From: Heterodontus francisci
Taxonomy: Eukaryota
Length of the DNA stretch: 64,000 nucleotides
Reading direction: 5' to 3'
Assembly (NCBI RefSeq): GCF_036365525.1
Contig: NC_090387.1
Coordinates: forward strand, 88,391,691 to 88,455,690
Part shown: positions 16,070 through 57,285 of the stretch, piece after piece
Layout: every line of letters starts with the position of its first letter
Position numbering within the stretch: the first letter of the stretch is position 1
Position numbers and translations under genes: made by a program
Notes under the pieces: model-generated
What the model was told of the DNA's origin: nothing
Database searches by the model: none
What the model saw: the letters and a program-made list of their open reading frames with translations, nothing else

Positions 16070-16219
16070 TTATACAATCTCGACTTCTATGCTTGGCTTG
16101 TTTATCTTGATCTCTGAATACTCCACTCCCCTTCTCTTCTGTTTCCTTCTTGCCATTTTATAGGAACAGGGGAAATCCAGAGATGCATAAGTCAGATTAA
16201 CATCCGTCCCTTGTTTGGT
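16070..16219 (-). CDS. Terminal cytoplasmic exon of V-C1 inhibitory receptor: TKQGTDVNLTYASLDFPCSYKMARRKQKRRGVEYSEIKINKPSIEVEIV*
   Basis: Strong acceptor ctttcatttttgcttccacag, phase 0; ITIM LTYASL and ITIM-like VEYSEI; TAA at 16072-16070. Not in the ORF track. Confidence 0.85.
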   Translation of the reverse strand, partial: TKQGTDVNLTYASLDFPCSYKMARRKQKRRGVEYSEIKINKPSIEVEIV

Positions 16220-16359
16220 CTGTGGAAGCAAAAATGAAAGAAAAGTTGCATCTGCTACCCAATCTAGTTGTTCCAGGCTGTCAATACACCTTACTCAGAT
16301 CAGACACTAATGCCGGAGACGTCCTAACTGGAATGGACTGTTGTGTTTCTCGGCCGTAC

Positions 16360-16470
16360 CTGGGCATAGACGGTGCGATCTTTCTCACGTCTGGTTTTCC
16401 CAGCTTCCCTGTGCCCACTGAACCTGAGAGCAGCGTAAGACAGACTCCCGGCCTTTCCTCTGCGCAGAAT
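16360..16470 (-). CDS. Penultimate cytoplasmic exon: ILRRGKAGSLSYAALRFSGHREAGKTRREKDRTVYAQ
   Basis: ITIM LSYAAL and TVYAQ; donor CAG|gtacgg phase 0 matches the next exon; 5' acceptor (cctcag|ATT) is less certain. Confidence 0.75.
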
Positions 16471-17519
16471 CTGAGGAGCGGTTTTGGAGAAATACTAGCT
16501 GTATATAAAATCACAAATGCACGGTACAGGGCCACAAAAAACAAAAACAGACTGCGCAAGTGTAATTACTGCAGTTGATAGTTGTAAATGACATTATCCC
16601 TGCGATAATTGTCATATAAGGACAATGGACATAACTAATTCCCAGCTTGTGTCATTCCCCTGAATATTCATTCGCAATCCTTGTTATCAGAGCTCATCCT
16701 GGAACGTTGAACCACGGTCTTGGCCCGTTTGCTGCTGTATAGTGTATCCAAGTTCTGAGTTTGCTTATTTCAGAAAACACATTTAACCTCAGTTGCTGAG
16801 CGCCCAGTAAGGAGCAGGTGGAGATACCAGTTTCGCTGCCAGGGCGCAGCGCTGGTCAACATTCAGAGCCCCATTTAAAAGTTTATGGGTGGGGATGTCG
16901 GTTGGCAACAGAATGGAGCTGGGCTATGCCTCGTCACGTGTTTGAATAGCCATCCAACTCGCCCTGACAAGATGCAAACATCAACACTCAGTTGCCCTTA
17001 AAACGAATATCAAACATTGAACAGGTGATTGACTATTGCGATTTAATGTAAGACTCAACACATTATAGCAGTCAGACTGGATCAGCTTCAACTGAAATGA
17101 ACAAATTCTTCAAAAAAGTCAAAGAATTTTAGTGGTGTTTGCGAGAACTGGAGGGTTGTGTGAATTCGTGTGTCATTGTTGCCCTCATGGGTCATTCACT
17201 ACATGATCAGAGGCGAGGACACTGGGGACAAATGCGATCCCTCCAGCAGTTAACGCTGAGACGTTTGCCGCTATTGAGGGTCACAATGACACTGCAACTT
17301 CCAGCGATTGCACTTGCGCCAAAGACTGGAATTGCGGTGTGCCTCAACGGGCTCTGGAGGAACGTGTACTGATGGTGTAGTTGGCCCGCTCTCTAAAGCA
17401 GCAAAGACCTGTGTAATCCGTCAATTTGTGCTGATTTTCCACATGTTTCGCTGATTTTCCTGCCGACTTATTTATTGCTAGTATCAACAGGCACAAGACT
17501 TGCTCCGGAGTGCATCAAC

Positions 17520-18633
17520 ATCTGTAAGCATTATTAAATATTAAAAGTGTGTCCCGATCATGCAGTACGAAGTTATGAACTATAAATATGAATTTATGAA
17601 GTATAAACCCGAAACGCGCACTTTACTGAAAACAAAATGGAGTTGAGAGGTTAAATGACCTTTTCTTTCCTGCCAATACACATGGAACTGCAAGACCCTT
17701 GAGCTAATTTTCATGTCTGGACAAGTCTTGGTGAAATCATTAAAATGCAAATGACCTTTCCGGACATTTCTTTGAGAAATTATTAAAATGAAAACAACCC
17801 TTCCTGTGGTAATTGCTGCATTTCTCCAACTAATTGAAAAGAACTGGACTCACAATACTGTTGTAGTCTCTTCGACTGCAAACTTGTAATCCAGAAAATG
17901 AGTGTAAATAGCTCTATTTGCCAAGATGGTATGGAGATGAGTGATACCCTAACTCTATTGTCTGACAATGACTTAACCATCATGAGGACAATGGAAAGAG
18001 ATGCTCTGGTCACATTTCAGAAACTAGGTTTTTGATAAGGGGTTTTAATAAGGTATATTCTGGGCAGACTGTAACAAAAAATATCTATGTGAATGAAGAA
18101 AAAGGACCCTGCCGAAGAACACCAGCTTTAATCCACCTGTAGACAGAGACTCGAGTTGGCCCTGAATTCTCCCTTGGAGGAACCGTACTAGGGTCTCACC
18201 ATTGAACCACGACAGGAATGTAAAAAGAGAAATCTGCTGTTGCTAACACAAAACATCCTCCTAAACACCCAGAGCTTTACGTCAGTGAACAAAAATGAAT
18301 TACAGGCCTGCATCATTTCAAGTCTTCACCCTAGGGAAAAGCAAGTGTAACAGAGAAGTCTTGAAATCATAAGACCTAAACCCATGCTACTTCTATTATC
18401 GCAATCTTTTGTGTGTGTGTATCATTATGTGAGAGTGAGTGTAGTTGCTTACATTTGGGTGTTTAACAATAAGCATTCATCTTTTAAAAAAAATTATGAG
18501 AAAACCTGTCATTTGTCTGTTCCTGACCATTGTACCACCCAGGAATTAAAACATTTTTGTAATACTCTGTCTTCGGTCAATGGAGAGGTGAAAAGGGGGA
18601 AACCATCCCGATCATCTCTCCTTCCCCCGTAAC
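17520..18633 (+). mobile_element. Possible solo LTR
   Basis: About 1.1 kb non-coding block ending ...cccgtaaca with a (TG)-rich stretch and polyA-like signal near the end; no TSD found. Confidence 0.25.
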
Positions 18634-19029
18634 AGGAAATGCGACGCTTTTGTTTAGCTTTTACTTGGCCCCGTGAATCACTTGATTCCCGTGTACAAGG
18701 GACCGAATTTTAGTGGTAACAATTCGGTGCTTTATTGGCCGGGATCTTGCAAAGCCAATAAATGCCAAAGCTGAGAAGTTCGCTGCTATTGAAGACCGCA
18801 ATGCACTGCAACTTCCGGGGAGCTGACTTACGCTCGAATCAGTAACTTGCGTCGCGTTTGAATGGGCTCCGGGGGAGCGCATGCTCACGGTCCTGTTATA
18901 GAGTTATAGACCTGTTGGGACCTGTCATTCGGGAACTTGGGCTTATTGCCCTGTACTTACCCCAGTATTTAAACTGATTTATTTAGGGGTGGACTCTGCT
19001 CTGGAACACTGCCCTTTAAATTAACAGGA

Positions 19030-19610
19030 GTGTGCAAACATTCCCGCACGGCAGGCAGTTCCGCACCACCGGCAGCATCCCCACCACGGCACTCCCAGAA
19101 ACCCAACTCTGCATCATCCGCCCGACACCCCCAGCTCCGCAACTCCTCCCCCAGTCAACCATGCCTCCGTAACCCCGGTCCCATCACCCCAAGCTCTGCA
19201 CCCCATCTCGACACCCACCTCCCACCCCCCGCCACTCCCCGGCTCCACACCTCCTCATCAGCTCCGCACACGCCCTCTTCACCCTGGCTCCGAATTTACC
19301 TCCCTGCACGTCCTCTCCAGGTCCGCACCACAACCCCATCAACCCGCTTCCCCCCAGCACAGTCCTGGCGCACCGCAAGGCGCAGATCCCACGCACCTTC
19401 CCCCCAACACGTCACTTCCGGCTCTTTTCCGACTTCTGCGGCACTGTGGTGGCAGGTTGGAGATGAGCTGGAGGTACGTGGGGTGGGAGGGGGTTGTGGG
19501 GGGGGCGGGGGGTGCGGAACTGGAGTCAGACCTGGGAAACCGGGAGACTCGGTGGGGGGCGGAGCCGGGGGAGATGTGTGTGTGGGGGGGGGGGGGGGGG
19601 GAGGGAGCTG
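19030..19610. repeat. GC-rich low-complexity tract, C-rich half followed by G-rich half
   Basis: C-rich 19060-19410, G-runs 19478-19605. Confidence 0.6.
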
Positions 19611-21626
19611 CCATTAAAAATCTATGAAATAAATAATCATAAAACAAACTCAATCGTGATTGAGCTGAAGGCAGATCTCAAGGGGCATGTCTCCAGCTCG
19701 TGACGTCAGAGGTGGCGTGCCATCGCCTGGATTGCTCTGCACCTCGCGGCCTCGCCACTCACTTCACTGATGGATCCACGCTGCAGACCGGCGAACCAGT
19801 TCCCGCTACAGCCAACGCAAAAGCTCGGCACGTAATGTTAAACGTAATCAGTATAGTAGGCCTCCACTTCGCCGCTGACCACAAGATCTGATCCATTCAT
19901 TTCGATGGAATCTGCTCTAGTCTGATTGCTCTAATTTGTTAAGAGTCTTGCTTTAACGCACGATTATTAATTATCTGTTCAATGTTTGATGTTTGTTTTT
20001 AGGGAAACTGTGTGTTTATGACAACAGTACTCATCGGATAATAGATTTCTTTTTAAATTCCAAGTCGAGAATGTGACGACATTTTGGAGTCTCCATGGGG
20101 AAACAACAAATGTCACGCAGGACGAGGGAAGAAAACCCCTGTATTCTCGCTTTGCAAGTTAGGAAACCTACATCACCATTATGAAGCGTTTCTATTTTAC
20201 TTGGTAGACTTAGGTCTACAATTTGTCTCTCACTCTGCGGGATGGTGCACTCTCTGTTTTCTCATTTACTAATAATGCTGTTTCTGCACTCTTTCATAAA
20301 TTTAGCTTAAGCAGCATTGGGGGAATTTCCCTTCCAGTCTTAAAATGCAGTTAATGTACTGCTGAACAAGAGGAAAATGCCAATCAGGGGGCCCGGTGTA
20401 TATTTTGAAAAGAAACACAATCGCAATTACTGGCAGACTTTAACACCTCATGAAGTATATAGAGCGCTTGTTAGAACCATCAATAAATTACCCCCGCCAC
20501 CCTACCATCCCGCAGAACAGCGGGCGCTGTGCCATAATTACACATCGTTCTTGCTGTATCTTTAAATGAGCATTTCAAACTTCTACAAAAAGCTCTGCAT
20601 AATCATAAAGTATTTTCCGCAACAAAATAAATTATATTGTTACAAATATCATCCTTTTCTGGGTAACTTAAAATAGGTTATACATGTATTTAAAAGAGAA
20701 TAACAGTTTTACGGAGTGGGGTGGCCTCGCCGACAATGCGCCACTCTGCTCGGCCTCGCAGATCCTGCCAACGTTGGGTCATGCTGCAGCAAGAAGTGGA
20801 TGATCTTGCTGCAGCCAACTAACCAGGTAAGTTCGTATTTCTCTGTGTAGTAAGGGGCATACGCCGCCGTTTCGCCGCTGACCGCAAGATACGAGCAAGT
20901 ATTCCCGTGTGCTACACCATTAGCGGGAGCAGTTCTAATGTCCCAGTAATACCGATATAACGTGTGCAGTGCATTGCAACAGCAGTCTATTTCTCATTAC
21001 ATCAGCGTGAAACTGACCTGCTCCTCGAACTGACCGGGTATATCCTCACTGATCTCTGTGCCTATTAGAGAACGACATTTATATCAATAATCAATTTCAT
21101 CGTGAACTAGACGCGCGACATGTCCGCCAAAAGTTACTCAACATTCGAACTAAGTCACCCGACTCACCATCAGTGGAAAAATCGCATCCGGTTCTAATAG
21201 TGGATCCTCTGGAGCCCATTTTACAGCCGAACACCCAGCGTTACATGCCCACTACCTGGTTCACGTTGTCTACCCTAAGGTTGCTGTCCCTCCCTGCACA
21301 GTCCAACATTAGCGGCATTTAATGTACAGACTTCATATCATCACCTACAGAGTTCACATCATCAGCTTCAGTAATCGCGAAGAATGAAAATACTGTTAAG
21401 TTTAATATTCAAACCTGGGGAAAGTATTCCGAAGGGTCCTTAATGCTTTAGGTCCTACCCTCGTCACAACAATGGGCCCCAGGAGGACAATCTCTCTCAG
21501 TGCAATAGATACTGCTCTGGTAGTCTAGACCCCAGTACGGATCATTTAAGCTTCCCGTTGCCTTAGCGCTCAAATGTAACGAAACGATAAAACACGATTC
21601 TGAAGCAGGATCGTGTCACGACTTAC

Positions 21627-21740
21627 CTTCACTTCTCTCTAATTTCCATCGCTTGACAAAAATTACCAACAGCAGGATTATTAACCCGCTCCCTACACAT
21701 CCAGACACCAAGGCGTAGAACAAAATACCGTCACCGTCAC
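21627..21740 (-). CDS. Transmembrane exon: (G)DGDGILFYALVSGCVGSGLIILLLVIFVKRWKLERSE
   Basis: Acceptor ctttctctgccccttttag, donor G|gtaagt, phase 1-1; uncharged hydrophobic span followed by KRWK stop-transfer. Confidence 0.88.
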
Positions 21741-22615
21741 CTAAAAGGGGCAGAGAAAGTGGAATGTTAATTAATTAAGCAATGTCAGATAACAGGCAGC
21801 ACCAACACGACACAGCGGTTTTTTTTGGAGTGGCGAGAGGTACCCCGTGGAGTTAGGCCCAATGCTTTTTTGATACGTATATTGATGACGTGGACTTGGG
21901 TACATAGAGCGTAATTTCAAAATTAGCAGATAACTCAAAAATCCAGAAATTTAATAAGCAATGAGGGGTATAGTAATAGAATTCAAGCGGACATAGATTG
22001 ATGCGAACATACAAACATAAAAATTAGGAGCAGGAGTAGACCACTCGGCCCCTGTAACCTTCTCCACCATTTAAAAAGATCATGGTTGATCTGATTGTAA
22101 CCTCAACTACACATGCCCGCCTATAACCGAAAACCTTGCACTCCCTTGCTTATCTACATCTGCCTTAAAATATTTAAAGACTCTGCTTTCATCACATTTT
22201 GGAGAGTTCCAAAGACTCATGACCCTCTGAGAGAAAGAAAAAATGTCCTCATCTCTGTCTTAAATGGACAGCCTCTTATTTTTAAACCCCTAGTTCAAGA
22301 TTCCTCCACAAGAGAAAACATCCTTTCCACATCCACCCTGTCGACCCTTCGGGACCTTACTCTTTTCTCAACTCCAGTGGTTACAAGCGTAGCCTGTTCA
22401 ACCTTTCCTCATATGATAACCGGTCCATAACAGCTATTAGTCCAGTAAGCCTTCACTGAGCTGCTTCCAATGCATTTACATCCTTCCTTAAATAAGCAGA
22501 CCAGTACTGTACACCATGCGCCAAATTTTGTCGCACCAATGCCCTGTATAACTAAAGCACAACCTCCCAACTTTTGTATGAAAATTCCCTCACAATAAAC
22601 AATGACATTCTATTA

Positions 22616-22907
22616 ACTAGTCGTTTGGTAGTACAGTACTTGAGTATTGATGGCAATAGCGACATGTTGTCAAAGCTTTTCATCTTGCACTCATCAGGAC
22701 AACCACAAGAATACCAATTAAAGGGAAAACAACAACTTTATACTGTATAAGATGAGAGTGCTGATTGGTTGGGTTGTGATCTCTGATTGGTAGAGGCGTT
22801 GCCATGGAGAGTACACCAGTTAATTGTGACTGACAGTTAAATGTCAAGCCCTGACCAGTGCAAGAATAAAAGCTTCGACAACATGTCTCTATTTTCAGCA
22901 ATACTCA
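22616..22907. mobile_element. Penelope-like terminal repeat with partial inverted copy, 11-bp TSD
   Basis: TSD acattctatta at 22605-22615 and 22908-22918; hammerhead motif on minus strand at about 22668-22703. Confidence 0.75.
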
Positions 22908-23311
22908 ACATTCTATTAGCTTTCCTAATTACTTGTTGTTCCTGCATATCAATCTTTTGTGATTCATGCTCCAGGACACCCAGATCCCTTTGCATCTCAG
23001 AGCTCTGCAATCTCTTGCCATTTAGATAATATGCTTCTTTTTTATTCTTCCTGCCAAAATGGAAATTTCACATTTTCCCACATTATACTCTATTTACCAG
23101 ATCTTTGCCCACTCCCTTAACCTATCTAGGTCCCTTTGTAGCCTCCTGATGTCCTCTTCACAACTTACTTTCTTACCTATCTTTGTACCATCAGCACGGT
23201 TACCAACCATACCTCAGTCACTTCATCTAAGTCGTGTTTAAGTAGTATAATGTTAAGGCCCCAGCACTGATCCCTGTGGCACACCACTCGTTACATCTTG
23301 CCAACCAGAGA

Positions 23312-25540
23312 AGAGTGGGTCCAAGACTAGCATTTTAAACTTAAATAAGGGCAATTATGAGGATCTTAAAGCAGAGCTAGCTAAAGTAACTGGCAAATCA
23401 TATGAAGGGATAGGTCAATAGAAATGCAGTGGCAGACATTTAAGGGGATATTTCAGGCTACACAGAATAGATACAGTTCAACGAGAAAGAAAAATTCCAA
23501 GGATGGTACCCGTCATTCGTGGTTAACTAAAACAGTTAAAGATAGTATTATATTTAAAGAAAAACGCCTATAATTGCGTATAGATGGGAGGCAGGTCAGA
23601 AGATTGGACAGAATAAAAAAAAACAGCAAAGAATGAATAAAAGATTGATAAGGAAGGTAAAATTAGAGTACGAGAGAAAGCTAAATAGAAATATAAAGAC
23701 ACATAGTAAGAGTTTCTATAGATATTTAAAAAAGAAAATAGTTAACAAAGCAAGCGTTGGTCCTATAAAAAGTGAGTCTGGGGAATTAATAATGGATAAT
23801 AAGGAGATGACAGATTAATTGAAAAGATATTTTGTATCGGTCTTCACTATTGAGGATATAAGTAACATCCCAATATTAGCTGTAAGTCAGGAAATGGAAG
23901 GGAGGAACTAAAGAAAATTACAGTCACCAGGGAAGTGGTAATGAACAAATTGTTGGATCTTTGGGCTGGCAAGTCCTTGGGTCCTGGTAGACTTCATCCT
24001 AGGAGTTTAAAAGAAGTGGCTAGTGAGATGGTTGACGCATTAGTTTTAATTTTCCAAAATTCGCTAGATTCGGAGAAGGTCCGTTAGATTGGAAAATAGT
24101 GAATGTAACTCCTTTATTCAGAAAGGGAGGGAGACAGAAAGCAGGAAATTGCAGACCGGTTAGCTGAAAATCTGTCTTAGGGAAAGTGTCAGAAGCTATC
24201 ATTAAAGATGTTATAGCAGGGCATTTAGAAAAAATCAAGGTAATCAGGCAGAGTCAACATGTTTTTGTGAAAGGGAAATCGTGTTTAACCAATTTATTGG
24301 AGTTCTTTGAAGGAGTTTCATGTGCTGTGGATCACGGGGAACCGGTGGATGTATTATACTGATTTCCAGAAGGCATTTGATAAGGTGCCATATCAAAGGT
24401 TATTGCAGAAAATAAAAGCTCATGGTGCAGGGGGTAACATATTGGCATGGATAGAAGATTGGTTAGCTAACAGGAAACAGAGAGTAGGCATAAATCGGTC
24501 ATTTTCTCATTGGCAAGATGTAACGTGTGGTGTGCCACAGGGATCTATGCTGGGGCCTCAACCTTTTACAATTTATGTAAATGATTTAGATGAAGGGACC
24601 ATAGGTATGGTTGCTAAGTTTGCTGATGACGCAAAGATTGGAAAGTAAGTTGTGAAGAGGACATAAGGAGGCTACAAAGGAGTATAGATAGGTTAAGTGA
24701 GTGGGCAAAGATCTGGAAAATGGAGTATAACGTGGGATAGTGTCAGGTTGTCCACTTTGTCAGGAAGAATAAAAAAAGAAGCATACTATCTAAATGGTGA
24801 GAGATTGCAGAGCTCTGAGATGCAGAGGGATCTGAGTGTCCTAGTACATGAATCACAAAAGGTTAGTATGCAGTTACAGCACGTAATTAGGAAAGCTAAT
24901 AGAATATTATTGTTTGTCGTGAGGGGAATGGAATATAAAAGTAGGGAGGTTATGCTTCAGCTATACAGGGCATTGGTGAGACCCCATCTGGAGTACTGTG
25001 TACAGTACTGCTCTCCTTATTTAAGGAAGGATGTAAATGAGTTGTTGCAGTACAGAGAAGGTTTACGAGACTAACAACTGGAATGGGCGTGCTGTCTTTT
25101 GGGGAAAGGTTGGGCAGGCTAGGATTGTACCCGCTGGAATTTAGATGAATAAGAGGTGACTTGATTGAAACATATAAGTTCCCGAGGGGTCTTAACAGGG
25201 TGGATGTGGGAAGGATGTTTCCCCTTGTGGTAGAATTATAAACTTGGGGCCACTGTTCAAAAATAAGGGGTCGTCCATTTAAGACAGAGATGAGGAAAAT
25301 TATTTTTCTCTCATAGGGTGGTGAGTCTTTGGAATTCTCTTCCTCAAAAGGCAGTGGAAGCAGAGTCTTTGAATATTTTAAGGCAGAGTTATATAGATTC
25401 TTTATAAGCAAGGGGGTGAAAAGTTATCGGGTGTAGGTGGAAATGTGGAATAATCAGTTCAGCCATGAACTTATTGAATGGTGGAGCAGGCTCGAAGGGC
25501 CGGGTGGCCTACTCCTGCTCCTAATTTGTATGTTCGTATG
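23312..25540 (+). mobile_element. 5'-truncated CR1 LINE nested in a same-family CR1
   Basis: DFQKAFDKVP, GVPQGSMLGP, KFADD, LVRPHLEYCVQ; host element resumes at 25541. Confidence 0.85.
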
Positions 25541-27829
25541 ACCCATTTATGCCTACTTTCTGTTTCCTGTTAGCTAGCCAATCATCTATCCATGCCAATA
25601 TGTTATCCCCTACACCGATCTTTGCACAATTATATGCATTTTCTTTAACATTGATACTATCTTTAACTTTTTGAGTTAACCACAGATGGTGGGTCCTCCC
25701 CTTGGAATTGTTCTTTCTCGTTGGAATGTATCTATTCTATGTATCCTGAAATATTCCCTGAAATGTCTGCCACTGCATCTCTATTGACCTATCCCTTAAC
25801 CTAATTTGTTAGATAACTTCAGCTAGCTCTGCTTTCATGCCCTCATAATTACCCTTATATAAGTTTAAAATACTAATCTGAGACCCACTCTTCTCTCTCT
25901 CAAACTAAATGTAAAATTCAATCATATTATGATTGCTGCTGCCTAGGGACGCCTTTACTATGAGGTCATTAATTAAGCCTATCTCGCTGCACAATACCAG
26001 GCCGAGTATAGCCTGCTCTCTGGTTTGCTCCAGAACGTGCTTTTGTAAGAAACTATCCAGAAAACATTCTATGAACTCCTCATCTAGGTTAGCTTTGCCA
26101 ATTTGATTTTTCCAGTCCATCTGTAAATTAAAATCCCCCATTCCCCCATGATTATCACCGTACCTTTCTGACAATCTCCTATTATTTATTCCTTTATATC
26201 TCGTACGACCACGTGGTTACTGTTAGGGGGCCTGTACACCACCCCCACAAGTGCCATCTTGCCTTTATCATTTCTTATCTCTACCCAAACCGCTTCTAAA
26301 TCCTGGTTTCCTGAACTTAGGTCATCCCTTGCTATTGTGCTAATAAAATCATTATTTAACAGAACCACCCCTCCACATTTTTCTTAGCTTTCTGTCCTTC
26401 CCAAATGTCATATACCCTTCAATACTCATGTCCCTAACTATGTTATCCTGCAGACATGTCTCTGTTATGGTTATCAGATCGTATTTGTTTATTTCTATTT
26501 GCTCTATCAGTTCATCTGTTTCAAATGCTAAGTGCATTCAGATACAGAGCCTTTAGTTTTGTCCTTTTATTATTGTTGTAACCTCTAGCCTTATCTGATG
26601 ACTTACTCGTAGATTTGTACTCTCTGTCCCTTCCTGTCACTGTTTGTTCATCATTTCCCATATTAATATCTTTCTCTCTTGTCTTGTTTTTACTCTTTAC
26701 TTTTTTCAAAATGTGATCCCTGCCCCCACTACTTAGTTTAAAACCCTCTCTACTTCCCTAGTTATACGACTCGCTAGTACGCTGGTCCCAGCACGGTTCA
26801 GGTGTAGACAGTCCCAATGGTATAGCCTCCAATTTCCCCTGTACTGGTGCCAGTGCCTGATGAACTGGAACCCACTTCTACACACCAGTCTTTGCGTCAC
26901 GCATTCATTTCTCTAATCTTATTTTCCCTATGCCAATTTGCACATGGCTCAGGGAAATAGGGTGGACATGTGGTGAATGAAATTTACGGCAGAAAATTGT
27001 GAAGTTGCTCATTATGGTAGGAAGAATTTGGACAGGCAGTGTGAAGTAGATTGTAAAATCTTAAGGGGGTGCTGGAATAGACAGACCTGGGGACATATGT
27101 ACACAATTCTTTCTTAGTGGCAGGACAAGTTAAAAAAGCTGTTAAAAATATGGGATTCTTGGCTTTATTAATAGAAGAATAGAGTTCAAAACAAAGGAAG
27201 TCATGCTCAACATTTATAATACACTGGTTAGATTCTATCTGCAGAATTGTGTTGAAATCTTGGCACCACATTTTATGAAGCACGTCAAGGCATTTGAAGG
27301 AGTGTAGAAGAGATTTACTAGAATGGTACTAGGGATGTGGGATTTTAAATACGCAGAGAGACTGGAGAAACTAGGATCGTTAGCCCTAGACTAGACAAGG
27401 TTAAGAGGAGATTTGATAGAGGTGTTCAAAATCATGAACAGTTTTGATAGAGGAAACAAGAAGACGCTTTATAGCGGCAGACGGGTCAGTAACCCAAGAA
27501 CACAAACAGAAGGCGACTGACATGAAGAAAAAGCGTTTTACACAGTGAGTTAATGCGATATGGGATGCACTATCTCAAAGCACAATACAAGCAGAGTCAA
27601 TCGTAACATTCAAAAGAGTATTGGATAAAAGCTTGGAGAGAGAAAATTCCAAGGGTATGGGGAGAGAGCGGGTGAGTTGGACTAATTGGATAGATCTACC
27701 AAAGAGCTAGTACAGGCACGAAGGCTTGAATAACTTGCTTCTGTGCTGAATGATTCTATGATATCGATTTCCTTCATGAACCTGCCCAGCTCCTGTTAAA
27801 CATTTGCAGTGCAATTGCACTCATCCCAT

Positions 27830-29280
27830 AAGAACATAAGAAAATGGAGCAAAAGTAGATCATAGGGCCCCTCGAGCCTGATCCAGCATTCAATATGATC
27901 GTGGCTGATTTTCTGCCTCAATTCCATTTTCTGCCTGCTCCTCATATCCCTTGATTCCTTGAGGCACCAAAAATATATCTATCTTATCCTTAATAGCGTA
28001 CATTCCCACATAGCTTTGTATCGTCTGCAAACTTAGCTATATTACTCTTGGTCTCTTCATCGAAGTCACTAATATGGAATGCAAGTAGCTGAAGCCCCGG
28101 TACTCCACTAATTACAGCCTGCAAACTTGAAATTGCGCCGATTATCCCTACTCGTTCGTTCCTGTCCGTTAACCAATACTCCATCCATCCTAATATATTA
28201 CCCTTAACTCCACGAACCTTATCTTGGGTATTTGCGTGACACCTTATTTTGGAAATCCAAAACACAAATCTACTGGTTCCCCTTTATCTACACTACTAGT
28301 TACATCCTCAAAAAACTCTAATAAATTTGTCAAACATTCGTAAAACCCCGTTGACTTTGTCTGATCATATAATTGCTAAGTGCATTGTTAACTACACGAG
28401 TCTTCAGTTTATTCCAGAGGCCAGTCACCGCATAGCAGACGAAAAGCTCTTGACATGTATTGATGCCCCTTCATTCCAGCAAATTTATCCAAATGCTCTA
28501 TCCACGTGTACACAGTGTAGCCCATCATTCAGTTATGTGTTCCCCAAGTCTATGCCTTTCTAAACTACAGATCATGATAACCAAGTGTTTTAAACTAGCT
28601 ATCAACCTATTGGCTCTCCTCCGAACTTTTCCCCTAATGACTCTATACTTCTCACCATATGAGAAACTAGAACTGGATACAGTATTGTAGACGAAGATTG
28701 ACCAAGGACCAGGGGATTAGAGTCCTTGTTTATTAATTTGGTCTCGCTACACATCCCAAATACCTATTTCTGGCTATAACCTTACGGCAGTGGTAGTAGA
28801 CGCTTAGATATTCGTACAGAATCACCCCTAGTTCTCTTTCGCCTTCAGAATAGTTTAATTCGGAGCCCTCCACTCTATGCACATGCTTGTTATTAGCCCC
28901 ACCTACGTATATTACACTACCGATATCGACGTTAAATGTAATCGACCAAATGCAAGTCCATTTCCGGATCGCATCTAGATCGCACTATAATCTATTTTAC
29001 TCCGACACCAGCGCAGATAGGTATCATCAGTGAGCCTACGGACATCTCCATCCAGATCACTGATAGAAATCGTGAAATGTAATGACCAATATACTAATCC
29101 CTAAGGACCTAATTAGTAGCCGGCCTCCATATGCCGTCACTACCATGAACGACAACCCTTTGTCGATGAGAGTGAGACGAATTCCCTATTCAAACCACCA
29201 TCTGCTCTCTAATCACGCACCACTGTATCTTAAATATTGACATATTGTCTGGCACCGCGTCAAAAGCTTTTTGCCACTGC
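27830..29280 (-). mobile_element. CR1/L2-group LINE fragments
   Basis: ORF 27990-28265 AKFADDTKL; older RT remnant 28460-29280. Confidence 0.55.
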
Positions 29281-29420
29281 AAACAGCACAGTAACATCCT
29301 TAATACACACTGCATTAAGAATGTTCTGATGCAGGCTCGTGGAAACAGAAAGTTAATGAGAGATCTCTATATCTAGCGCAGCTACAGTTCAGAGGAGTAT
29401 TAAAAATCTGAGACTCTTAC

Positions 29421-29702
29421 CCTGACCACGAACTGTGTAGCTGTTGTTGGCTGGGACCCTGAGGGAGATATGAGAAACCTGGCAGGTATAATCCGACTCG
29501 CTCTCCACAGGGCTGAGGGAGCTGGAAACTTGATACAATCCCTCCTCGTTCTGACTTTCCGTGATGTTTATCCCAGATGTAATTTGGAAACCATTTTTAT
29601 ACCAAGTGAGATTAAACTCCCCCGGGAAGAAGCCAGCTGTTGTGCAAAAGAGTGCGAGGGATGGAGAGGAGAGATGGGTAACCTTCAAAGGTGTTGGCGG
29701 CA
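29421..29702 (-). CDS. Ig C1-set domain exon of V-C1 receptor
   Basis: LFCTTAGFFPGEFNLTWYKNG...GLYQVSSSL...YTCQVSH C1-set signature; acceptor cattcctag|TG, donor G|gtaaga, phase 1-1. Confidence 0.92.
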
Positions 29703-30254
29703 CTAGGAATGAGTTAAAGGAAATGTGTTAAAATCGCTATTCGTGCATTACATTTGAAAAAGGAAAGTATGGCTTTCGAGAAACAAGAAGATTTAGCAGC
29801 TCGATTGTTCCTTTAGTAAGGACATTTAATCGCTGTATTAAGCTTGTTTTGCTTTAAGAAGTATATGGGGAATATTTCTTTCATTCTGGTCTTTATCCAG
29901 CACTGGTTGCGGGAAGACTCCGCGTCCTGTTACACAGCACCCGCCTGTACGATGTCTCAAAACTCTTTGCTGGTGTTACACTGTGATTTGGACCTTCGGT
30001 TTCTTTTATTCATTCATGGGATGTAGGCATCGTTGCCAAGGTCAGCATTTATCGCCTATCTATAATTGCCCCTGAGAAGGTGATGGTGAGCCCTTCTTGA
30101 ATTACTGCAGTCCGTGTGGTGAATGTACATACTCAGTGCTGTTAGGGAGGGAGTTCCAAGAGTTTGACTCAGCGATAGTGAAGTATCGGCGATATAGCTT
30201 TTACGTACGTTTCAGCTATGCCACGAGGGAGACATTACAAGCTAGAACGTCGCT

Positions 30255-30480
30255 TCTGGCTCGGTTGACTCGATGGCCCACATCTATTGCAAAATAACGC
30301 CAACAGTGGGGGTTCAAATCCCATACCGGCTGAGATCGTTTTTGGCACCTGCCTCCTCGCCTTACCCCATCGTGATATCATGGCATGAGTGATGATTAGC
30401 AATCCTCAGACAATGAGGACGCCACATAGAGACAGTGACACAGCTTGGGCCATAATTACGGCAACTGCATGAAAAAAAAT
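30255..30480 (+). mobile_element. tRNA-derived SINE of another family
   Basis: A-box-like tggctcggttg, B-box ggttcaaatcc at about 30310, A-rich end. Confidence 0.45.
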
Positions 30481-31632
30481 GCCTGTATTCCAATGTGGGA
30501 CTTTTTGTCAAAGCTTAACTTGGGGAAAGTCGCCCGTATCAGAGCTACCGTAACTCATTTCTGAGATGGAAATCAATGTATCACTGCAAATACATCGAGT
30601 GTAAATTAAGATAAGTCCAAGGATAATCTGGCGCTGGTGTAAGTAGAATGATCAATGTGTGCACCGCCTCTACTGCAAATAAAATGTACGAATGGAAAAG
30701 CAATCTGTTAGTATTGTAAATAATCTCTAATTGTGCAAATGCAATGGGTCACGGAATAAAATAGATTATCATTGGTAGACTAAAATCTCTCCCTTGCGAT
30801 CGCTTTGTTTTTTCAGGCTCCACTTGTCCCTTACCTCTGTAATACTTTCATATATTTGCTAACAGTTAATCACAATCTCACTATTGTATTACAATTTTGA
30901 TTCACCAGGCAACTGGAAAAAGTCATCGCACTCTGGTATGGGGGCAAAAGTAGAATGGAGCTCGGCTCCTCAGTGATGAGAGGATTGAACGAAATGATTC
31001 CAAATCGGATTCTATTCAGAGTCACATCACTTTTTCTCACTCGATGAATATTTAAAAATAAATTTTAAAAATCTCATTCAGCACTTTCTATGTGTAAATA
31101 TGTTATATAAATGACCACATAAGTGCCATGATTACTAGAGCTGCTCAGAGGCTGGATTTTCTGCAGCCAATGACTTAATTGTTGACTCCGCAACGCCTCT
31201 CTGCCACCTACAAGCCAGGAGACAGATGGCATACTCGCCACTTGTCTGATTAGTATATGCTTGACACGATCCCTGAAAATCCCTGCACCACATTAAACAC
31301 CCGCTCTCTTCACCTTATGCGCACCGTGATTGCAGTGTGTGTCATCTACAAGATGCACTGCACGACTCGCCAAAGCATCGTCTGCAGCTCCTTTCAAATC
31401 CGTGAACTGTGTCACATAAAAAGACAAGGGTACGGCCACATGGAAATACCACCAGCTCCAAGTTCCCCGCAAGTCAGACGTCCTTCTGTCTTGGACATAT
31501 ATCACAGTTCGTTCATTATCACTGGGTCAGATTCCTGGAACCTCATACATGACAGCACGCCATACATGAGGTGCTATCGCCTTCTCACCACCAACTGCAG
31601 GGATTCAAAGAAACTATACCCCGCCAACTAGT

Positions 31633-34560
31633 GACTAGTAACCCAGAGACCCAGGGTATTGCTCTGGGGACATCGGTCGAATCCCACCACTGCAGAAGGT
31701 GGAATTTGAATTCAATTAATAAATCTGGAATTAAAAGTGAGTCTAATGATGGCCATGAAACCATTGTCAATTGCAGTAAAAAACAAAAATCTGGTTCACG
31801 AATGTCCTTTAGAGAAGTAAATCTGCTGTCCTTACCTGGCCTACATGTGACTCCAGACTCACAACAATGTGGTTGACTCATAAATGCCCTCTGAAATGGC
31901 CTAGCAAGCCACTCAGTTGAATCTAACGGCTAAGAAGTCAATAATGAATGAAACCAGATGGACCACCCAGCATCAACCCATGCACTGGAAACAACAACGG
32001 CAAACCCAGCCCTGTCGACCCTGCAAAGTCCTCCTTACTAACATCTGGGGGCTTGTGCCAAAGTTGTGAGAGCTGTCCCACAGACTAGTCAAGCAACAAC
32101 CTGACATAGTCATACTCACAGAATCATATCTTACAGGCAATGCCCCAGACACCACCATCACCATCCTCAGGTATGTCCTGTCCCAGAGGAAGGACAGAGC
32201 CAGAAGAGATGGAAGCACACTGGTATACAGTCGGGAGGGAGTTGCCCTGGGAGTCCTTAACATCGACTCGAGACCAAATGAAGTCTCTTGGCTTCAGCTC
32301 AGCATGGACAAGGAAACCTCCGGCTGATTATCACCTACTACACCCCTGTCAGCAACACTTGGAGGAAACACTGAAGGTGAGAAGGGTGCAGAATGTACTT
32401 TGGGTGTGAGACTTCAATGTCCATCACCAAGCTTGGTAGCACTACTAGTGACTGAGCTAGCCGAGTCCTAAAGGACATATCTGCTTGACTGGGTCTGCGG
32501 CAGGTGGTGAGGGAACCAACAAGAGGGAAAATATACTTGACCTTGTCCTCACCAATCTGCCTGCCGCAGATGCATCTGTCCATGACAGTGTTGGCAGGAG
32601 TGACCACCGCACATCCTTGTGGAGTCAAGGTCCCGACTTCACATTGAGGATACCCTCCAAAGTGTTGTGTGGCACTATTACCGTGCTAAATGGGATAGAT
32701 TTCGAACAGATCTGGCAATGGAAAACCGGGCATCCAAGAGGCAGTGTTGACCATCAGCAGCAGCAGAATTGCACTCAGCCATAATCTGTAACCTCATGGC
32801 CAAGCATATTCCCCCACTGTATCATGACCATCAAGCCGGGTGACCAACCCTGGTTCTTTGAAGAGTGCAGGAAGGCATGCCAGGAGCAGCACCAGTCATA
32901 CCTCAAAATGAGGCGTCAACCTACTGAGGCTACAATCCAGGACAACTTGCGTGCCAAACCGCGTAAGCAGCATGCAATAAGCAGAGCTAAGCTTCCCATG
33001 ACCACCGAATCAGATCTCAGCCTGCAGTCCTGACACATCCATTCGTGAATTGTGGTGGGCAATTAAACAATTAACTGGAGCATGTGGCTCCACAAATATC
33101 CCCATCCTCAATGATGGGGAAGCCCAGCACATCAGTGCGAAAGATAAGACAGAAGCATTTGCAACAATCTTCAGCCAGAAGTGCCGAAGTGCCATCTCAG
33201 GCTCCTCCTGAAGTCCCCAGCATCACAGATGCCAGTCTTCAGCCAATTCGATTCACTCCGCATGATATGAAGAATTAACTGAAGGCACTGGACACTGCAA
33301 AGGCTATGGGCCCTGACAACATTCCAGCAATAATACTGAAGACCTGTGCTCCAGAACTTGCCGCACCCCTAGCCAATCTGTGCCAGTACAGCTTCAACAC
33401 TGGCATCTACCCAGCAATGTGGAATATTGCCAGGTATGTCCTGTGCACAAAACCGGGACAAGCCAAACCTGGCTGATTACCAGCCCATCAATCTACTCTC
33501 AATCATCAGTAAAGTGATGGAATATGTCATCAACAATGCTATCAAGTGGCACTTGCTTAGCAATAACCTGCTCAGTGACGCTCAGTTTTGGGTTCCGCCA
33601 GAGCCACTCAGCTCCTGATCTCATTACAGCCTTGGTTCAAACATGGACAAAAGAGCTGAACTGAAGAGATGAGGTGGGAATGACTGCCCTTGACATCAAG
33701 GCAGTATTTGACCGAGAATGGCATCAAGGAACCCCAGCAAAACTGGTGTCAGTGGGAATCAGGGTGAAAACTCTCCGCTGGTTGGAGTTATATCTAGCGC
33801 AAAGGAAGATGGTTGTGGTTGTTGGAAGTCAATCATATCAGCTCCAGGACATCAGTGCAGGAGTTCCTCAGTGTAATGTTCTAGGTGCAACCATCTTCAG
33901 CTGTTTTATCAATGAACTTCCTTCAATCATAAGGTCAGAAGTGGGGATGTTCGCTGATGATTGCCCAATGGTCAGCGCCATTTCCGACTCCTCAGATACT
34001 GCCGCAGTCCGTGTAAAAATGCAAGAAGATCTGGACAATATTCAGACTTGGGCTGATAAGTGGCAAATAACATTTGCACCTCTCAAGTTCCAGGCAATGT
34101 CCGTCTCCAGCAAGAGAGAATCTAACCCTCTCCCCTTGGCATTCAATGGCATTACAATCACTGAATCCCCACTATCAACAGCTTGGGGGTTACCATTGGA
34201 TGTCAAGATTGCATACCATCTACAAGATGCACTGCAGCAATGCAGAAAGGTAGTACCTTACAAACCCGCGACCTCTGCCACTTGGAAGGACAAGGGCAGC
34301 GGATGCATGGAAACACCACTACCTCCAAGTTCCTCTCCAAGCCACACACCATCCTGACTGGGAACTGTATCGCCGTTCCTTCACTGTTACTGGTTCAAAA
34401 TCCTGGAACTCCCTTCCTAATAGCACTGTAGGTGCAACTACCCCACATGGGCTACAGCGGTCAAGCAGGTAGCTCACCACCACCTTCTCAAGGGCAATTA
34501 GGGATGGGTAATAAATGCTGGCGTAGCCAGTGATGCCCATGGCCCATGAACCAATAAAAA
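31633..34560 (+). mobile_element. CR1-group LINE with tRNA-like head and Deu domain, single APE-RT frame (disrupted)
   Basis: B-box-like ggtcgaatcc 31675-31684, Deu core 31800-31920, endonuclease start NIWGL..DIVILTESYL at about 32040, RT ALDIKAVFDREWH, GVPQ, MFADD, A-rich tail. Confidence 0.85.
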
Positions 34561-34821
34561 AACAACTAAAAAAAACTTCTTAATGACAATTCGTGATAAG
34601 CAATAAATGCTGCCCGTGCCAACGATACCCATATTCAGAGAATGAACTAAAACAAATACAACATATTTAAATACATGATAACGGGATGACAGATCAATAT
34701 CTGAAGTCAGCACCACAGATCCGAACAGACAGGAAAATCTTTGCTGTTCTCTTGTTCAATATTCTCTAATGTAGATCTGCATAATTTGAACCTGGCATAT
34801 TACCCCTGCAGTGTCACTCAC

Positions 34822-35142
34822 CGTGTACAATAAGCTCAGTCCCAGTTCCATTGGATATCTTTCCGCTCCAGTCTCTCGCTTTGCAATAATAGACTCCGGA
34901 GTCCTGGAAACTCACATTCACCAGATGGAGCTCGGCAGATCCTGGCTTGACAGATGTGATTATTTTATTTTTCTCCGTAGTCGCATTCAAAGTCTCGTTC
35001 TGATCTTCTCTCCACCAATGAACATCCACCCATGCTTTGCGATCGAAAAGCGAGAAAGTGCAACAAATGGACACATTTGTACCTTTTACCGGAGTTACCC
35101 GGGCGGGAAACTGAGTCACGGGGAAAATGGTCCCGTCCGTCG
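34822..35142 (-). CDS. Ig V-set exon with germline-joined J-like end
   Basis: VTQFP..SICCTF..VHWW..LHLVNVSFQDSGVYYC..NGTGTELIVH; acceptor tatttctgacag|CG, donor G|gtgagt, phase 1-1. Confidence 0.93.
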
Positions 35143-35341
35143 CTGTCAGAAATAAATACAAACATGAATGTTAGGCAGAAATAGTGACTGGCTGGATCAA
35201 AAGGGAAGAAATAGCTTGTAAGAAATACAACGAAAAAGGGAAGTGTACACTAAACAGTGCTCACTAAACATTGAACAGCAGTGACCTCTACACAGTTCTT
35301 ATTCATTTTCCTATTATCATTCAGATCTTAATTTAGTACAC

Positions 35342-35396
35342 CTGAATAACTAATGCCCAGAGCTAAAAGATATCGCAGCATATTGAGTACAGGCAT
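35342..35396 (-). CDS. Leader (signal peptide) exon: MPVLNMLRYLLALGISYS
   Basis: ATG at 35396, hydrophobic core, phase-1 donor CAG|gtgtac (weak), 199-nt intron, joins V exon as ...SYSATDG. Confidence 0.7.
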
Positions 35397-35399
35397 CCC

Positions 35400-35600
35400 G
35401 AATTCGATCACTTGTGCTGTAAGTCAGTGTGAAATGCTGACGTGTGCGGGGATGTCAAGATTGGAAAGATAATCTGGCATTGAGCGCGTTGGAGTGTGGC
35501 GGACCACAAGATAGCTGAAGCTGTAACGCCAATACACTGATTCACATTTACGTCAGAGCTGAGAACGCACAGTGGAAGTTGATGCCACCCACTTCACTGT
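35400..35600 (-). promoter_or_regulatory. Putative proximal promoter of the receptor gene
   Basis: Immediately upstream of leader ATG; CRE-like TGACGT (35438) and TTACGTCA (35548), ETS-like GGAAGT (35574); motifs are short and may be chance. Confidence 0.3.
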
Positions 35601-48719: not shown

Positions 48720-51700
48720 GGATTTAAGCAACTTGGCATAGGTGTGGGAACAAGGAGACAATATCAGAGAGGAATACCAAGGTGCACAGAATACTGGGAG
48801 AAATAGATAGCACTGGAGTAGCAAATAATTTAGGTGGGTTCAGAGTAAGGGAGGAAGAAAGAAAGTCTAAATCAGGGTTAATGCGCATGTTTGTGAACAC
48901 ACGGAGTCTGGATCATATGATATGGCTATAGCAGAGACCTGGCTCAAAGAAGTGAAGGACTGGGTGTTGAAGATTCCTGGATACAAGGTGTTCAGTAAAG
49001 ATAGGAAAGGAAGAAAAGGAGGAGGAGTGGCAGTATTGATTAAGGAGAGCATTGCAGTGCTAGGGAGAGGGGTCAAAGACTATTTGGCTAGTGAGAGGAA
49101 CAACAAAGGTGCAATTACATTGCCCGGTGTTGTCTATAGGCCACCAACTAGTGGACAGGATGTAGAGGAATAGATTTGCAAGGAAATTACAGAGCAGTAT
49201 AAAAATATAGATTAGTTATAATGAGGGAATTTAATTATCCGAATATAAACTGGGATAGGAGTAGTACAAAGAGCAGAGAGTGGCAAGAGTTCATAGAGTG
49301 TGTTCGGGAAGATTTCCTACAGCAGTATGTTTCCAGTCTAAGGTGAAGAGAGCACTGCTGAATTTGGTTCTTGGGAATGAGGTGAGCATAGTGGATCAAA
49401 TAGGAGAGCATTTAGAGGACAGTGATCATTGCATTATAAATTTTAGGTTGACTATGGAAGAGGAAAAAGAACAATATAAAGTAAGAATATTTAGCAGGGG
49501 GAAAGCCAATTTCAATTGGGTAAGAATGGATCTGGGTCAGATAAATTAGCTTCAAAGGTTGACAAACAATGGTCGCTGAACAACCTTCAAGGAAGTGATA
49601 GTTCGGGCACTGTCAAGTTATTTTCCCTAGAAGGGGATAGGTAAGGCAAACAAATCTAGAGATTAAGATGAAGAAGAACAAATATTATTATGACAGATGC
49701 CAGGTGGATAATGCAATGGAGAACCAAGCTGAATATAGAAAGTTCAGAGGGGAAATGAAAACGCAAATTAAAAAAAGAAGCAAAGAGGGAGTGTGAAAAG
49801 CGATTGGCAGCTAACATAAAACGGAATCCCAAAGTCCTCTATAGACGTACAAATAGTAAAAAAAAGTGGTAAAAGGAGGAGTGGAGTCGATTAGGGACAA
49901 AAAGCGGATTTGCACTTGGAGGCAGGAGGAGCAGCTGAGTTGCTAAATTAATGCATTGCATCTGTATTTGCCAAGGAAGAAGATGCTACCCAGGCCACGG
50001 TGAAAGAGGAGATAATTAATACACGAGAAGGATTTAAATTAATACGGATCAGGCATTAGAATGTCTGTCTACACTTAAAGTTGATAAAGCACCAGGACCA
50101 GATGAGGTGCATCTAAGGATACTGAGCGAAGTGAGAGTGGAAATTGTGGAAGCACTGGTCATAATGTTCCAGTCTTACTTAGACTCGGGTTGTTGCCAGA
50201 GGACTGGAGAATTGTAATTGTTACACCCTTGTTCAAAAAAGGGTGTAACTATACACCTACCAACAATATGCAAAGCAGTTTAACTTCCGTGGTGGAGAAA
50301 CTTCGGGAGTAAATTAATAGGCACATGGAGAAATGCGGCTTAATTAAGGAAAGCCAATAAGGATTTGTCAAAGGGAAATAGTGTTTAACTAACTTGCTGG
50401 AGTATTTTGAAGAGGTAACAGAGCGGGTTAATGATGGCAATCCTGTTGACGTGGTGTACAAGGACTTCCAGAAGGCATTTGGTGCAGTATCGCACAAGAG
50501 ACTAGTGGGAAAAATCATAGTTCATGGACTAAAAGGGACAGTAGCAACATGGGTATGAAATTGGCTGAGTGACAGGAAACAGAGAGTAATGGTTAATGGA
50601 TGTTTTTCAGGCTGGGAGAAGGTTTGCAGTGGAGTTCCCCAGAGGTCCATGTTGTGATATTTGCTTTTTCTGATATATACTGATGACTTAGACCTTGGTG
50701 TACAGGGTACAATTTCAAAATTTGTGGATGATACCAAAGCTGGATGCATTGTGAACTATGAGGATAATATTGAACATCAAAAGGGCATAGACAAATTGAT
50801 GGAATGGACAAGACAAGTGGCAGATGAAGTACGACGTGGAGAAATGTGAAGTGATTCAATTTGCTAGGAAGAACATGGAGAGACAATATAAGATAAACGG
50901 TCCAACTCTAAATAGGATGCAGGAGAAGAGGGGCCTGGTTGTATATGTGAATATGTCATTGAAAGTAGCAGGACAAGTTTAGAGAGCATTTAATGAAGCA
51001 TGCAATATCCTAGGCTGTATTGATAGGGGAATAGTGTACAAGACATCCGATCTTTTCAAGAAGTCTGACGAGACCACGTCTGCTGACGAGGTCAAAGGCT
51101 TTGGTGAGATCAATGAAAGCAACGTAGAGGGGCATCTGTAGTTCGTGGCATTTCTCCTGTAGCTGACGAAGGGAGAACAGTATGCCAAAGCTACTAAGTA
51201 TCATCATCTCATTCCATGACAATATGAAAGGCACAATTCAGCATAGCGGCGTCCCCTCAGACTCCTTTCTGATCCTGAGTGGCGTGAAACAGGGCTGTGT
51301 TCTCGCACCCACACTGTTTGGGATCTTCTTCTCCCTGCTGCTCTCTCATGCATTCAAGTCTTCAGAAGAAGGAATTTTCCTCCACACAAGATCAGGTGGC
51401 AGGTTGTTCAACCTTGCCTGTCTAAGAGCGAAGACCAAAGTACAGAAAGTCCTCATCAGGGAACTCCTCTTTGCTGACGATGCTGCATCAACATCTCACA
51501 CTGAAGAGTGTCTGCAGAGTCTCATCGACAGGATTGCGGCTGCCTGCAACGAATTTGGCCTAACCATCAGCCTCAAGAAAACGAACATCATGGGACAGGA
51601 CATCAGAAATGCTCCACCCATCAATATCGGCGACCTCGCTCTGGAAGTGGTTCAAGAGTTCTCCTACCTGGGCTCAACTATCACCAGTAACCTGTCTCTA

Positions 51701-52890
51701 GATGCAGAAATCAACAAGTGCATGGAAAGGCTTCCACTGCTATGTCCAGACTCGCCAAGAGAGTCTGGGAAGATGGTGCACTGACATGGAACACAAAAGT
51801 CTGAGTGTATCAAGCCTGTGTCCTCAGTACCTTGCTCTATGGCAGCGAGGCCTGGACAACGTATGTCAGCCAAGAGCGACGTCTCAATTCATTCCATCTT
51901 CGCTGCCTCCGGAGAATCCTTGGCATCAGGTGGCAGGACCGTATCTCCAACACAGAAGTCCTCGAGGTGGCCAACATCCCCAGCTTATACACCCTACTGA
52001 GCCAGCGACGTTTGAGATGGCTTGGCCATGTGAGCCGCATGGAAGATGGCAGGATCCCCAAGGACACATTGTACAGCGAGCTCGTCACTGGTATCAGACC
52101 CACCGGCCGTCCATGTCTCCGCTTTAAAGACATCTGCAAACGCGACATGAAGTACTGTGACATTGATGACAAGACGTGGGAGTCAGTTGTCAGTGATCGC
52201 CAGAGCTGGCGGGCAACCATAAAGGTGGAGCTAAAGTGTGGCGAGTCGAAGAGACTTAGCAGTTGGCTGGAAAAAAGTCAGAAGCGCAAAGGGAAAGCCA
52301 ACTGCGTAACAGCCCCGACAACCAATTTTATCTGCAGCACCTGTGAAAAAGTCTGTCACTCTAGAATTGGCCTTTATAGCCACTCCAGGCGGTGCTCTTC
52401 AAACCACTGACCACCTCCAGGCACTTACCCATTGTCTCTCTAGACAAGGAGGCCAAAGAAGTGTACAGGAGCAAGGAGGTTTTGTTCAACTTGTGAAAGT
52501 CAAGAGTTCAGCCTCAGCTGGGGTATTGCATCCAGTTCTGGGTGCCCCACTTTCGGAAAGTTGTGAAAGCATTGGAGAAAGTGCAGAAAAGATTCAGGAG
52601 AATGTTCTAGCAATGAGGAACTTCAGTTATGAAGATAGATTGGAGACGTTGGGACTGTTTTCTTTGGAGAAGAAAAGGCTAAGAGATGATTTGATGGAGG
52701 CATTCAAAATCATGAGGAATCTGGACAGAGTGGATTGGGAGAAACAGTTCCCACTCGTGAAAAGATCGAGAACAAGATTTAAAGAAATTGGCAAAAGAAG
52801 CAAAAGCAACATGAGGAAAAACTTTTTCACAGAGCGACTGATTAAAGGCAGGGGAATGGCACTAGGTAATTTGTTCAGTCAGATATAAGA
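48720..52890 (+). mobile_element. CR1 LINE ORF2 (degenerate), interrupted by RTE
   Basis: AIAETWL..GGGVAVL..VVYRPP, SDHCII, KFVDDTK, LFSLEKKRLRDD. Confidence 0.85.
51044..52459 (+). mobile_element. RTE-clade LINE, 5'-truncated with 5' inversion
   Basis: 51044-51183 is inverted relative to 51184-52459; TSD agtgtaca(a/g)ga at 51033-51043 and 52460-52470; LLFADD and C-terminal C2H2 finger. Confidence 0.9.
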
Positions 52891-57170: not shown

Positions 57171-57285
57171 AAGAAAAATTCAAACCAAAAGACATTTACG
57201 ATAGGAAGGCAGGAGAAAATTAATAAGCTAATCAAACTTAGTGAGCAGAATATCCCCAGTTTGCATGTATTGCATCCATGCATAT

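Follow-up and report, generated by a model that had tools for sequence, protein, structure and literature searches.

A germline VJ–C1 gene of the horn shark is a likely inhibitory member of a clustered receptor family in cartilaginous fish

Introduction

Several systems of germline-encoded immunoglobulin (Ig)-like receptors combine inhibitory forms, which carry immunoreceptor tyrosine-based inhibitory motifs (ITIMs) in their tails, with clustered activating sisters. SIRP-alpha and SIRP-beta1 do so on an ectodomain of one germline VJ domain and two C1-set domains, and SIRP-beta1 has a lysine in the middle of its transmembrane (TM) segment for DAP12. NCR3/NKp30 has a non-rearranging VJ exon and, in its activating form, an arginine in the TM segment. 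The LILR/KIR, Siglec/CD33, NITR and CHIR families are clustered birth-and-death families with ITIM and charged-TM forms; their ectodomains are C2-set or V plus I, the second domain of NITRs being an I (V/C2-like) domain. PRARP, tetrapod VJC1 and UrIg/UrIg2 share a non-rearranging VJ–C1 layout without recombination signal sequences (RSSs), with UrIg2 extended to V-C1-C2-C3 and PRARP carrying ITIMs and immunoreceptor tyrosine-based switch motifs (ITSMs). In sharks, germline receptors for inhibitory self-recognition are poorly known. Here we analyse a stretch of 64,000 nucleotides of the genome of the horn shark Heterodontus francisci (NC_090387.1, positions 88,391,691 to 88,455,690; hereafter the window), whose minus strand holds a gene with a VJ plus C1-set ectodomain, in contrast to the C2-set or V-plus-I ectodomains of the LILR/KIR, Siglec/CD33, NITR and CHIR families, and with an ITIM-bearing tail.

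According to a 2022 review, how SIRPs originated is unknown (PMC9652883), and in a 2026 survey the SIRP family is assigned to tetrapods (PMC13262535). We found no description of the family reported here in the literature searched, although a prior description is possible at odds of about one in three, and a supplement file of PMC3964593 mentions no SIRP, NKp30 or ITIM. Apparently, this chondrichthyan VJ–C1 paired-receptor family is unnamed.

Gene structure and tail isoforms

On the evidence of sequence, the gene encodes a germline VJ–C1 type I receptor whose tail holds three ITIM-consensus motifs, and this receptor likely (probability roughly 0.7) acts as an inhibitory type within a paired-receptor family of cartilaginous fish. 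This reading is based on the exon structure, two tail isoforms, about 40 clustered V–C1 relatives and the presence of sister types with neutral and arginine-containing TM segments.

Seven minus-strand exons, separated by six GT–AG introns, join into a 358-residue leader–VJ–C1–TM–tail protein that matches RefSeq XP_067905922.1 (Heterodontus francisci, 'tapasin-related protein-like') letter for letter. The leader exon (window positions 35396–35342) starts with the ATG at 35396 and ends in a phase 1 donor, in agreement with RefSeq isoforms X1, X3 and X4. Next come a germline-joined VJ exon (35142–34822), encoding a compact V domain with an extra Cys, five N-glycosylation sequons and a J motif that begins with an N-G-T sequon; a single C1-set exon (29702–29421) with three sequons; and a TM exon (21740–21627) that is uncharged and has a Gly/Cys small-residue motif, as in most neutral-TM members of the family. 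Pfam recognized the two domains as V-set (E 5.6e-10) and C1-set (E 3.8e-13), and the protein has no stalk Cys. An original prediction, made from the sequence of the window, had described a non-rearranging chondrichthyan VJ–C1 receptor wired for inhibition, and most of its description is upheld in an intact gene: the compatible phases of these four exons, the uncharged TM, the eight sequons in V plus C1 (5+3), and the J-like motif within the V exon with no RSS (no exact heptamer in 34401–35500). The C1 is likewise single, as we found no second C1 and no alternative Arg-TM exon inside the gene or within 200 kb to its left.

The exons as originally listed do not join, because the TM exon ends in phase 1 and the first tail exon begins in phase 0, and a 44-nt cytoplasmic mini-exon (21061–21018, phase 1 to 0) is therefore needed between them. 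The tail then continues through a cassette exon of 111 nt, exon A (16470–16360, phase 0/0), into the terminal exon B, whose coding part and stop codon occupy 16219–16070. The 3' untranslated region extends at least over 16069–15215, one contig covering 15215–16222.

Transcript contigs were available from runs X1, X2 and X3, which derive from one sample in one study and whose label 'RNA' is the tool's guess. These contigs connect the TM exon to the tail exons through the joints 21060/21626, 16470/21018 and 16219/21018, and they represent two in-frame isoforms with three or two ITIM-consensus motifs. In run X1 the depth was 49.7 at the TM/mini-exon joint, 19.1 at both mini-exon/A and A/B, and 20.8 at mini-exon/B, so that contigs lacking exon A account for about half of the joined depth (20.8 skipping versus 19.1 including). 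Run X2 lists only the skip form (mini-exon/B, depth 5.28), with one contig extending 36 letters beyond the TM acceptor, and none of the TM–tail joints was seen in run X3. RefSeq models show the same exon A skip (isoform X3) as well as a form that leaves out C1 (isoform X4). Read-through from exon A into a canonical TVYAQV plus stop was considered and set aside, as no listed contig crosses the A–B intron, although contigs drop rare forms. The idea that exon B arose by recent duplication of exon A was also rejected, the DNA alignment being no better than shuffles (40 of 300 reach its score). Elsewhere in the family, in-frame RefSeq isoforms that skip the TM exon recur in four species (P0004, P0008, P0026 and P0039) and possibly represent soluble forms.

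Scored against the ITIM consensus, LSYAAL, LTYASL and VEYSEI fit, one of them encoded by exon A and two by exon B, 23 residues apart. The fourth motif, TVYAQT, exists only across the A–B splice (TVYAQ|T) and has no V, I or L at +3; it also lacks the +3 V/I of the ITSM consensus, which is written TxYxxV/I in PMC11599192. Thus the four motifs that had been predicted are all present in the tail, which also has a fifth Tyr, but three rather than four are ITIMs by consensus.

A clustered family with neutral and arginine transmembrane types

The initial emphasis on a single one-C1 receptor missed the main point, namely the gene's membership in a clustered set of about 40 paired receptors. In the genome searched (G000), V matches numbered 45 (from 142 scored candidates) and all fall on C17, the contig that holds the gene, as do 44 of the 45 C1 matches (150 of 371 candidates scored); they form clusters at 70.9–71.0, 76.1–77.1, 88.4–90.8 and 92.5 Mb; the gene is the left-edge member of its cluster. 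A downstream C1 lies 0.8–18 kb behind 41 of the 45 V exons, exactly one in 39 cases, and the two second copies are broken orphans. With the gene's own C1, the orphan C1 in the window and one broken C1 set aside beforehand, 41 C1 exons remained, and for 40 of them we read the downstream 10 kb by eye. Behind these 40, the TM type was neutral in 27 and Arg-containing in 3, with none found in 10, and ITIM-like tail exons were present behind 15. The short-tailed sisters carry an Arg near the start of the TM segment. Clustered sisters with similar ectodomains that end in ITIMs or in a charged TM segment place the family among paired Ig-like receptors. Two family V exons, at C17:70972545 and C17:71019513, about 1 Mb from CBFB, had no C1 found downstream; they are possibly V-only members, or their C1 was missed by the C1 search at its 150 scored candidates.

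Database relatives were from cartilaginous fish (chimaera, rays and sharks) in 32 of 32 matches of one search and 67 of 73 of another, counting one match whose species name was incomplete and whose accession belongs to the Callorhinchus series. None of 101 family proteins, a set that includes isoforms, had a V-C1-C1 layout, and Arg-TM forms numbered 10 by pattern plus 1 by eye, from several shark and ray species. A phylogeny of V domains, which the original prediction had proposed, placed the family on one branch of its own (94/99) with a long stem, apart from the SIRP-type and NKp30-like V domains. The gene's own subclade of four V domains includes an Arg-TM protein from Heptranchias (99/96).

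Conservation in the tail centres on the terminal ITIM and the T/V-E-Y-x-x-I/L motif, a pair kept as a constant unit from chimaera to rays and sharks. The Tyr of TVYAQT is kept in many relatives and lost in P0007, P0024, P0025, P0031 and P0205, and some members (P0033 and P0035) have more than one copy of the exon A module. A long basic, Tyr-free tail is kept in both L115 of the horn shark and P0041 of a stingray, and forms a third signalling type.

In the V domain, aligned for 23 of 30 fetched loci, the extra Cys (ICCTF) to which significance had been attached is private to this gene (1 of 23). The Phe/Trp position of the J motif is Asn in 18 of 23, followed by G-T/S in most. The Cys pair is spaced by 54–59 residues in the family (59 in this gene), compared with 61–70 in NKp30-like, 66–68 in SIRP-type and 65–70 in T-cell receptor (TCR) and Ig light-chain (IgL) V domains. 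The early description of the protein as shaped like a TCR chain therefore holds for domain order and fails for the V domain, which is short and has a sequon Asn in place of the J-motif aromatic residue.

Several observations weigh against an inhibitory paired receptor. Activating-type members are few (3 of the 30 classified). Pairwise ratios of nonsynonymous to synonymous substitution (dN/dS) among close paralogs are for the most part under 1 and exceed it in a few V pairs with low counts; between the gene and its neighbour the ratio is 0.77 in V and 0.51 in C1, and pathogen-driven diversification is not demonstrated by these values. We recognized no family member among the bamboo shark single-cell cluster markers in the listed part of the PMC11372145 supplement. 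Of the transcript structure that had been predicted, the joining of TM to tail stands on contigs, but leader–V–C1–TM joins were not seen in the reads of these runs and rest on phase, splice sites and RefSeq models, and the same runs may be the data behind those models.

Relation to SIRP and other receptors

The gene resembles SIRP-alpha in its tail motifs and probably in the way it signals, yet it is unlikely to be a SIRP. At the level of the whole protein SIRP-alpha is indeed the nearest look-alike, as had been proposed. Its ectodomain heads the PDB sequence search (E 6.2e-14), by a margin that is negligible against titin (9.8e-14) and UrIg2 (3.1e-13), and SIRP-alpha clusters are the top two ESM Atlas feature matches (0.96); because CD33-type clusters score nearly as high (0.94), the tail is not diagnostic of SIRP. 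These matches would fit a true but divergent SIRP, that is, a relocated shark co-ortholog of SIRP-alpha that has a single C1 and recognizes CD47 on myeloid cells. So would the start of the SIRP-alpha J motif, likewise non-aromatic in the PDB search alignment, and the lack of any other SIRP candidate in G000, where two SIRP-type V queries gave no good match (best E 7.5e-5 and 0.0029), subject to the first filter of that search. We nevertheless consider a divergent SIRP improbable, and the proposed SIRP affinity of the V domain is not supported. There is no SIRP among the best 60 PDB matches of this V domain, whereas a lungfish SIRP-type V, used as positive control, matches SIRP-alpha at E 2.2e-16. 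Under the family V profile the median scores were 55.7 bits for turtle, 39.7 for NKp30-like, 33.1 for TCR-like, 30.4 for IgL and 27.9 for SIRP-type V domains, the lowest of six groups, and the reciprocal SIRP-type profile, from a reference of five V domains of two species (lungfish, and paddlefish assigned by motif and tree), also scored the family lowest (20.8 bits). V-profile searches of PDB and of 50% representatives were dominated by multi-domain proteins. The absence of V-C1-C1 layouts, the family size of about 40 genes, the Arg near the TM start of activating sisters as against the mid-TM Lys of SIRP-beta1, and the chromosomal location of the family (see below) add to the differences. 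Searches for CD47 and MHC II beta family members gave no match anywhere, controls included, and are uninformative.

The tree itself does not settle the origin of the family, because the approximately unbiased (AU) test, on about 107 columns, rejects no union of the family with SIRP-type (p 0.086), NKp30-like (p 0.17), turtle (p 0.23) or TCR-like (p 0.26) V domains; in the free tree the family does not join the SIRP-type V domains and lies beside TCR-like V with weak support (77/85). Fold searches do not discriminate between candidate relatives either. The predicted structure (predicted local distance difference test score 84.2) has no C'' strand; its best VIA matches, VNAR (Z 15.1, rmsd 1.7, 97 aligned), NCAM2 Ig1 (15.0) and CD79b (14.4), are tied, with SIRP absent among the best 50 rows listed, and Foldseek ranks CD79b, TCR V-beta and NKp30 first to third and SIRP-alpha 41st, all within E 2e-9 to 5e-8. 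It is very unlikely that the gene survives from a pre-RAG antigen receptor as one half of a V–C1 dimer of TCR or light-chain type. A VJ exon with one C1 is the precursor layout proposed in PMC10751288, and the best scores under the C1 profile go to constant domains of Ig heavy chains and UrIg2, in a search where the scores of multi-domain proteins add up; together with the placement beside TCR-like V, these points favour such ancestry. The family is, however, on C17, not on C29 with the major histocompatibility complex (MHC) nor on C34 or C8 with the TCR-like and light-chain V exons, and the short V, the Asn in the J motif and the missing stalk Cys all speak against a paired chain. UrIg and UrIg2 are better-placed ancestor candidates according to PMC12227049, and PRARP (compared by description only), VJC1 and UrIg are linked to the MHC or the antigen-receptor complex in PMC10751288 and PMC12227049, whereas this family is not. 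The gene makes a poor antigen-receptor ancestor. Hardly more probable is a ligand or adhesion molecule of B7-H6, tapasin-related or nectin-like type whose tail motifs serve trafficking rather than inhibition. RefSeq names in the family (tapasin-related, NCR3LG1-like, CD276 homolog) and the short or Tyr-free tails of some members would suit it, but the names vary at random within one family, the pairing of ITIM motifs is kept throughout Chondrichthyes, some sisters are of the Arg-TM type and there is no N-terminal tapasin domain. Tapasin/TAPBPR identity was rejected on this last ground, the leader being spliced straight to V.

Two further identities were tried and rejected. NITR does not fit, as the second domain here is C1-set. 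Identity with NCR3/NKp30, which shares the non-rearranging VJ exon and the Arg of the activating TM, fails on location and domain make-up: the gene has a C1 and a neutral TM and is not MHC-linked, MHC I matches lying on C29 and unplaced contigs with none on C17; an NKp30-like query, itself identified weakly (E 7e-8), found 29 matches, of which 28 lie on C29 and not one on C17; NKp30-like V domains form a separate branch (99/97) in the free tree; and C1 plus ITIM tails belong to the shark family. The 28 NKp30-like VJ exons lie in two C29 clusters at 14.8–15.4 and 31.0–32.0 Mb (L160–L174), some in tandem within one gene span.

The best-scoring outside group under the family V profile is a set of turtle multi-VJ receptors (P0064, P0092 and P0147), which have an N-G-S/T-G J motif in 5 of 9 domains and both Arg-TM and ITIM forms. 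They differ in having several V domains and no C1, share 24% mean identity with the family and do not join it in the free tree. These turtle proteins and P0081, also multi-VJ with Arg-TM and ITIM forms, appear under unrelated RefSeq names. Outside tetrapods, lungfish P0117 and paddlefish P0156 are multi-V proteins whose V domains are SIRP-type, a finding that would date such V domains back to bony fish.

Proposed function

Our preferred reading, an inhibitory paired receptor, suggests a mechanism modelled on established ITIM biology. The V domain would bind a cell-surface ligand and Src-family kinases would act on the tail tyrosines; SHP-1 or SHP-2 would then dock through their tandem SH2 domains on the motif pair of exon B, with inclusion of exon A tuning inhibitory strength. 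The likeliest use would be the sensing of a self surface protein by a leukocyte. The Gly/Cys TM motif could allow homodimers, and a glycan on the Asn that takes the aromatic position of the J motif would work against pairing of the VH/VL or TCR kind. Because LILRA, GPVI and NKp30 serve as models for adaptor use through a TM Arg, the short-tailed Arg-TM sisters would be expected to signal via an adaptor of the FcR-gamma or CD3-zeta type. Apart from its tunable tail the gene alone is unremarkable, but a family of about 40 genes, found from chimaeras to rays and sharks under misleading RefSeq names, supplies defined candidates for screening ligands and mapping expression, and allows the origin of SIRP to be tested concretely by synteny.

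Chromosomal context

NSFL1C is a neighbour of the SIRP cluster on human chromosome 20. Synteny of the gene with the SIRP region is not supported: SEP-domain genes, of which we take one by its motif to be NSFL1C, are on C16 and C5, and the family is on C17, where CBFB lies between its clusters. No Ig domains were found within 200 kb around the C16 SEP-domain gene, a short span for a 6-Gb genome. Bamboo shark gene identifiers numerically near family members belong to FOXC2-, OSGIN1- and MAP1LC3B-like genes, which together with CBFB, by the positions of these markers in human, point to a human 16q-type chromosome. As predicted beforehand, three NHR2-domain genes fall on C5, C16 and C17, which suggests sister chromosomes; by this one three-way marker, C17 and the SIRP chromosome appear to be duplication sisters. 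It is conceivable, though we hold it to be doubtful, that the SIRP cluster and this family are sisters (ohnologs) from whole-genome duplication. A VJ–C1 ITIM receptor would in that case predate the second duplication, with the chromosome-20-type copy retained in bony vertebrates as SIRP and the 16q-type copy retained and expanded in cartilaginous fish. The latter would then be the main germline self/non-self receptor system of cartilaginous fish, and the turtle multi-VJ receptors possible surviving relatives. Published tables assign paralogs of E2F, syntrophin and MMP to 8q, 16q and 20q, and NSFL1C to 20p13 (PMC6585022, PMC1867822), although PMC6585022 argues that several such duplications predate vertebrates.

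Other features of the window

Outside the gene, an orphan broken C1 exon of the same family lies at 909–621 on the minus strand, with an in-frame stop, the first Cys lost and 80% DNA identity to the gene's C1; no V or TM match is nearby. Adjoining it, at 1166–1363, is a GC-rich, promoter-like inverted repeat with a self-match of about 200 bp at 76%. At the other end, positions 51000–64000 contain several copies of a long interspersed nuclear element, 88–92% alike, and within this region a reverse transcriptase-like open frame of 921 residues spans 58868–61633.

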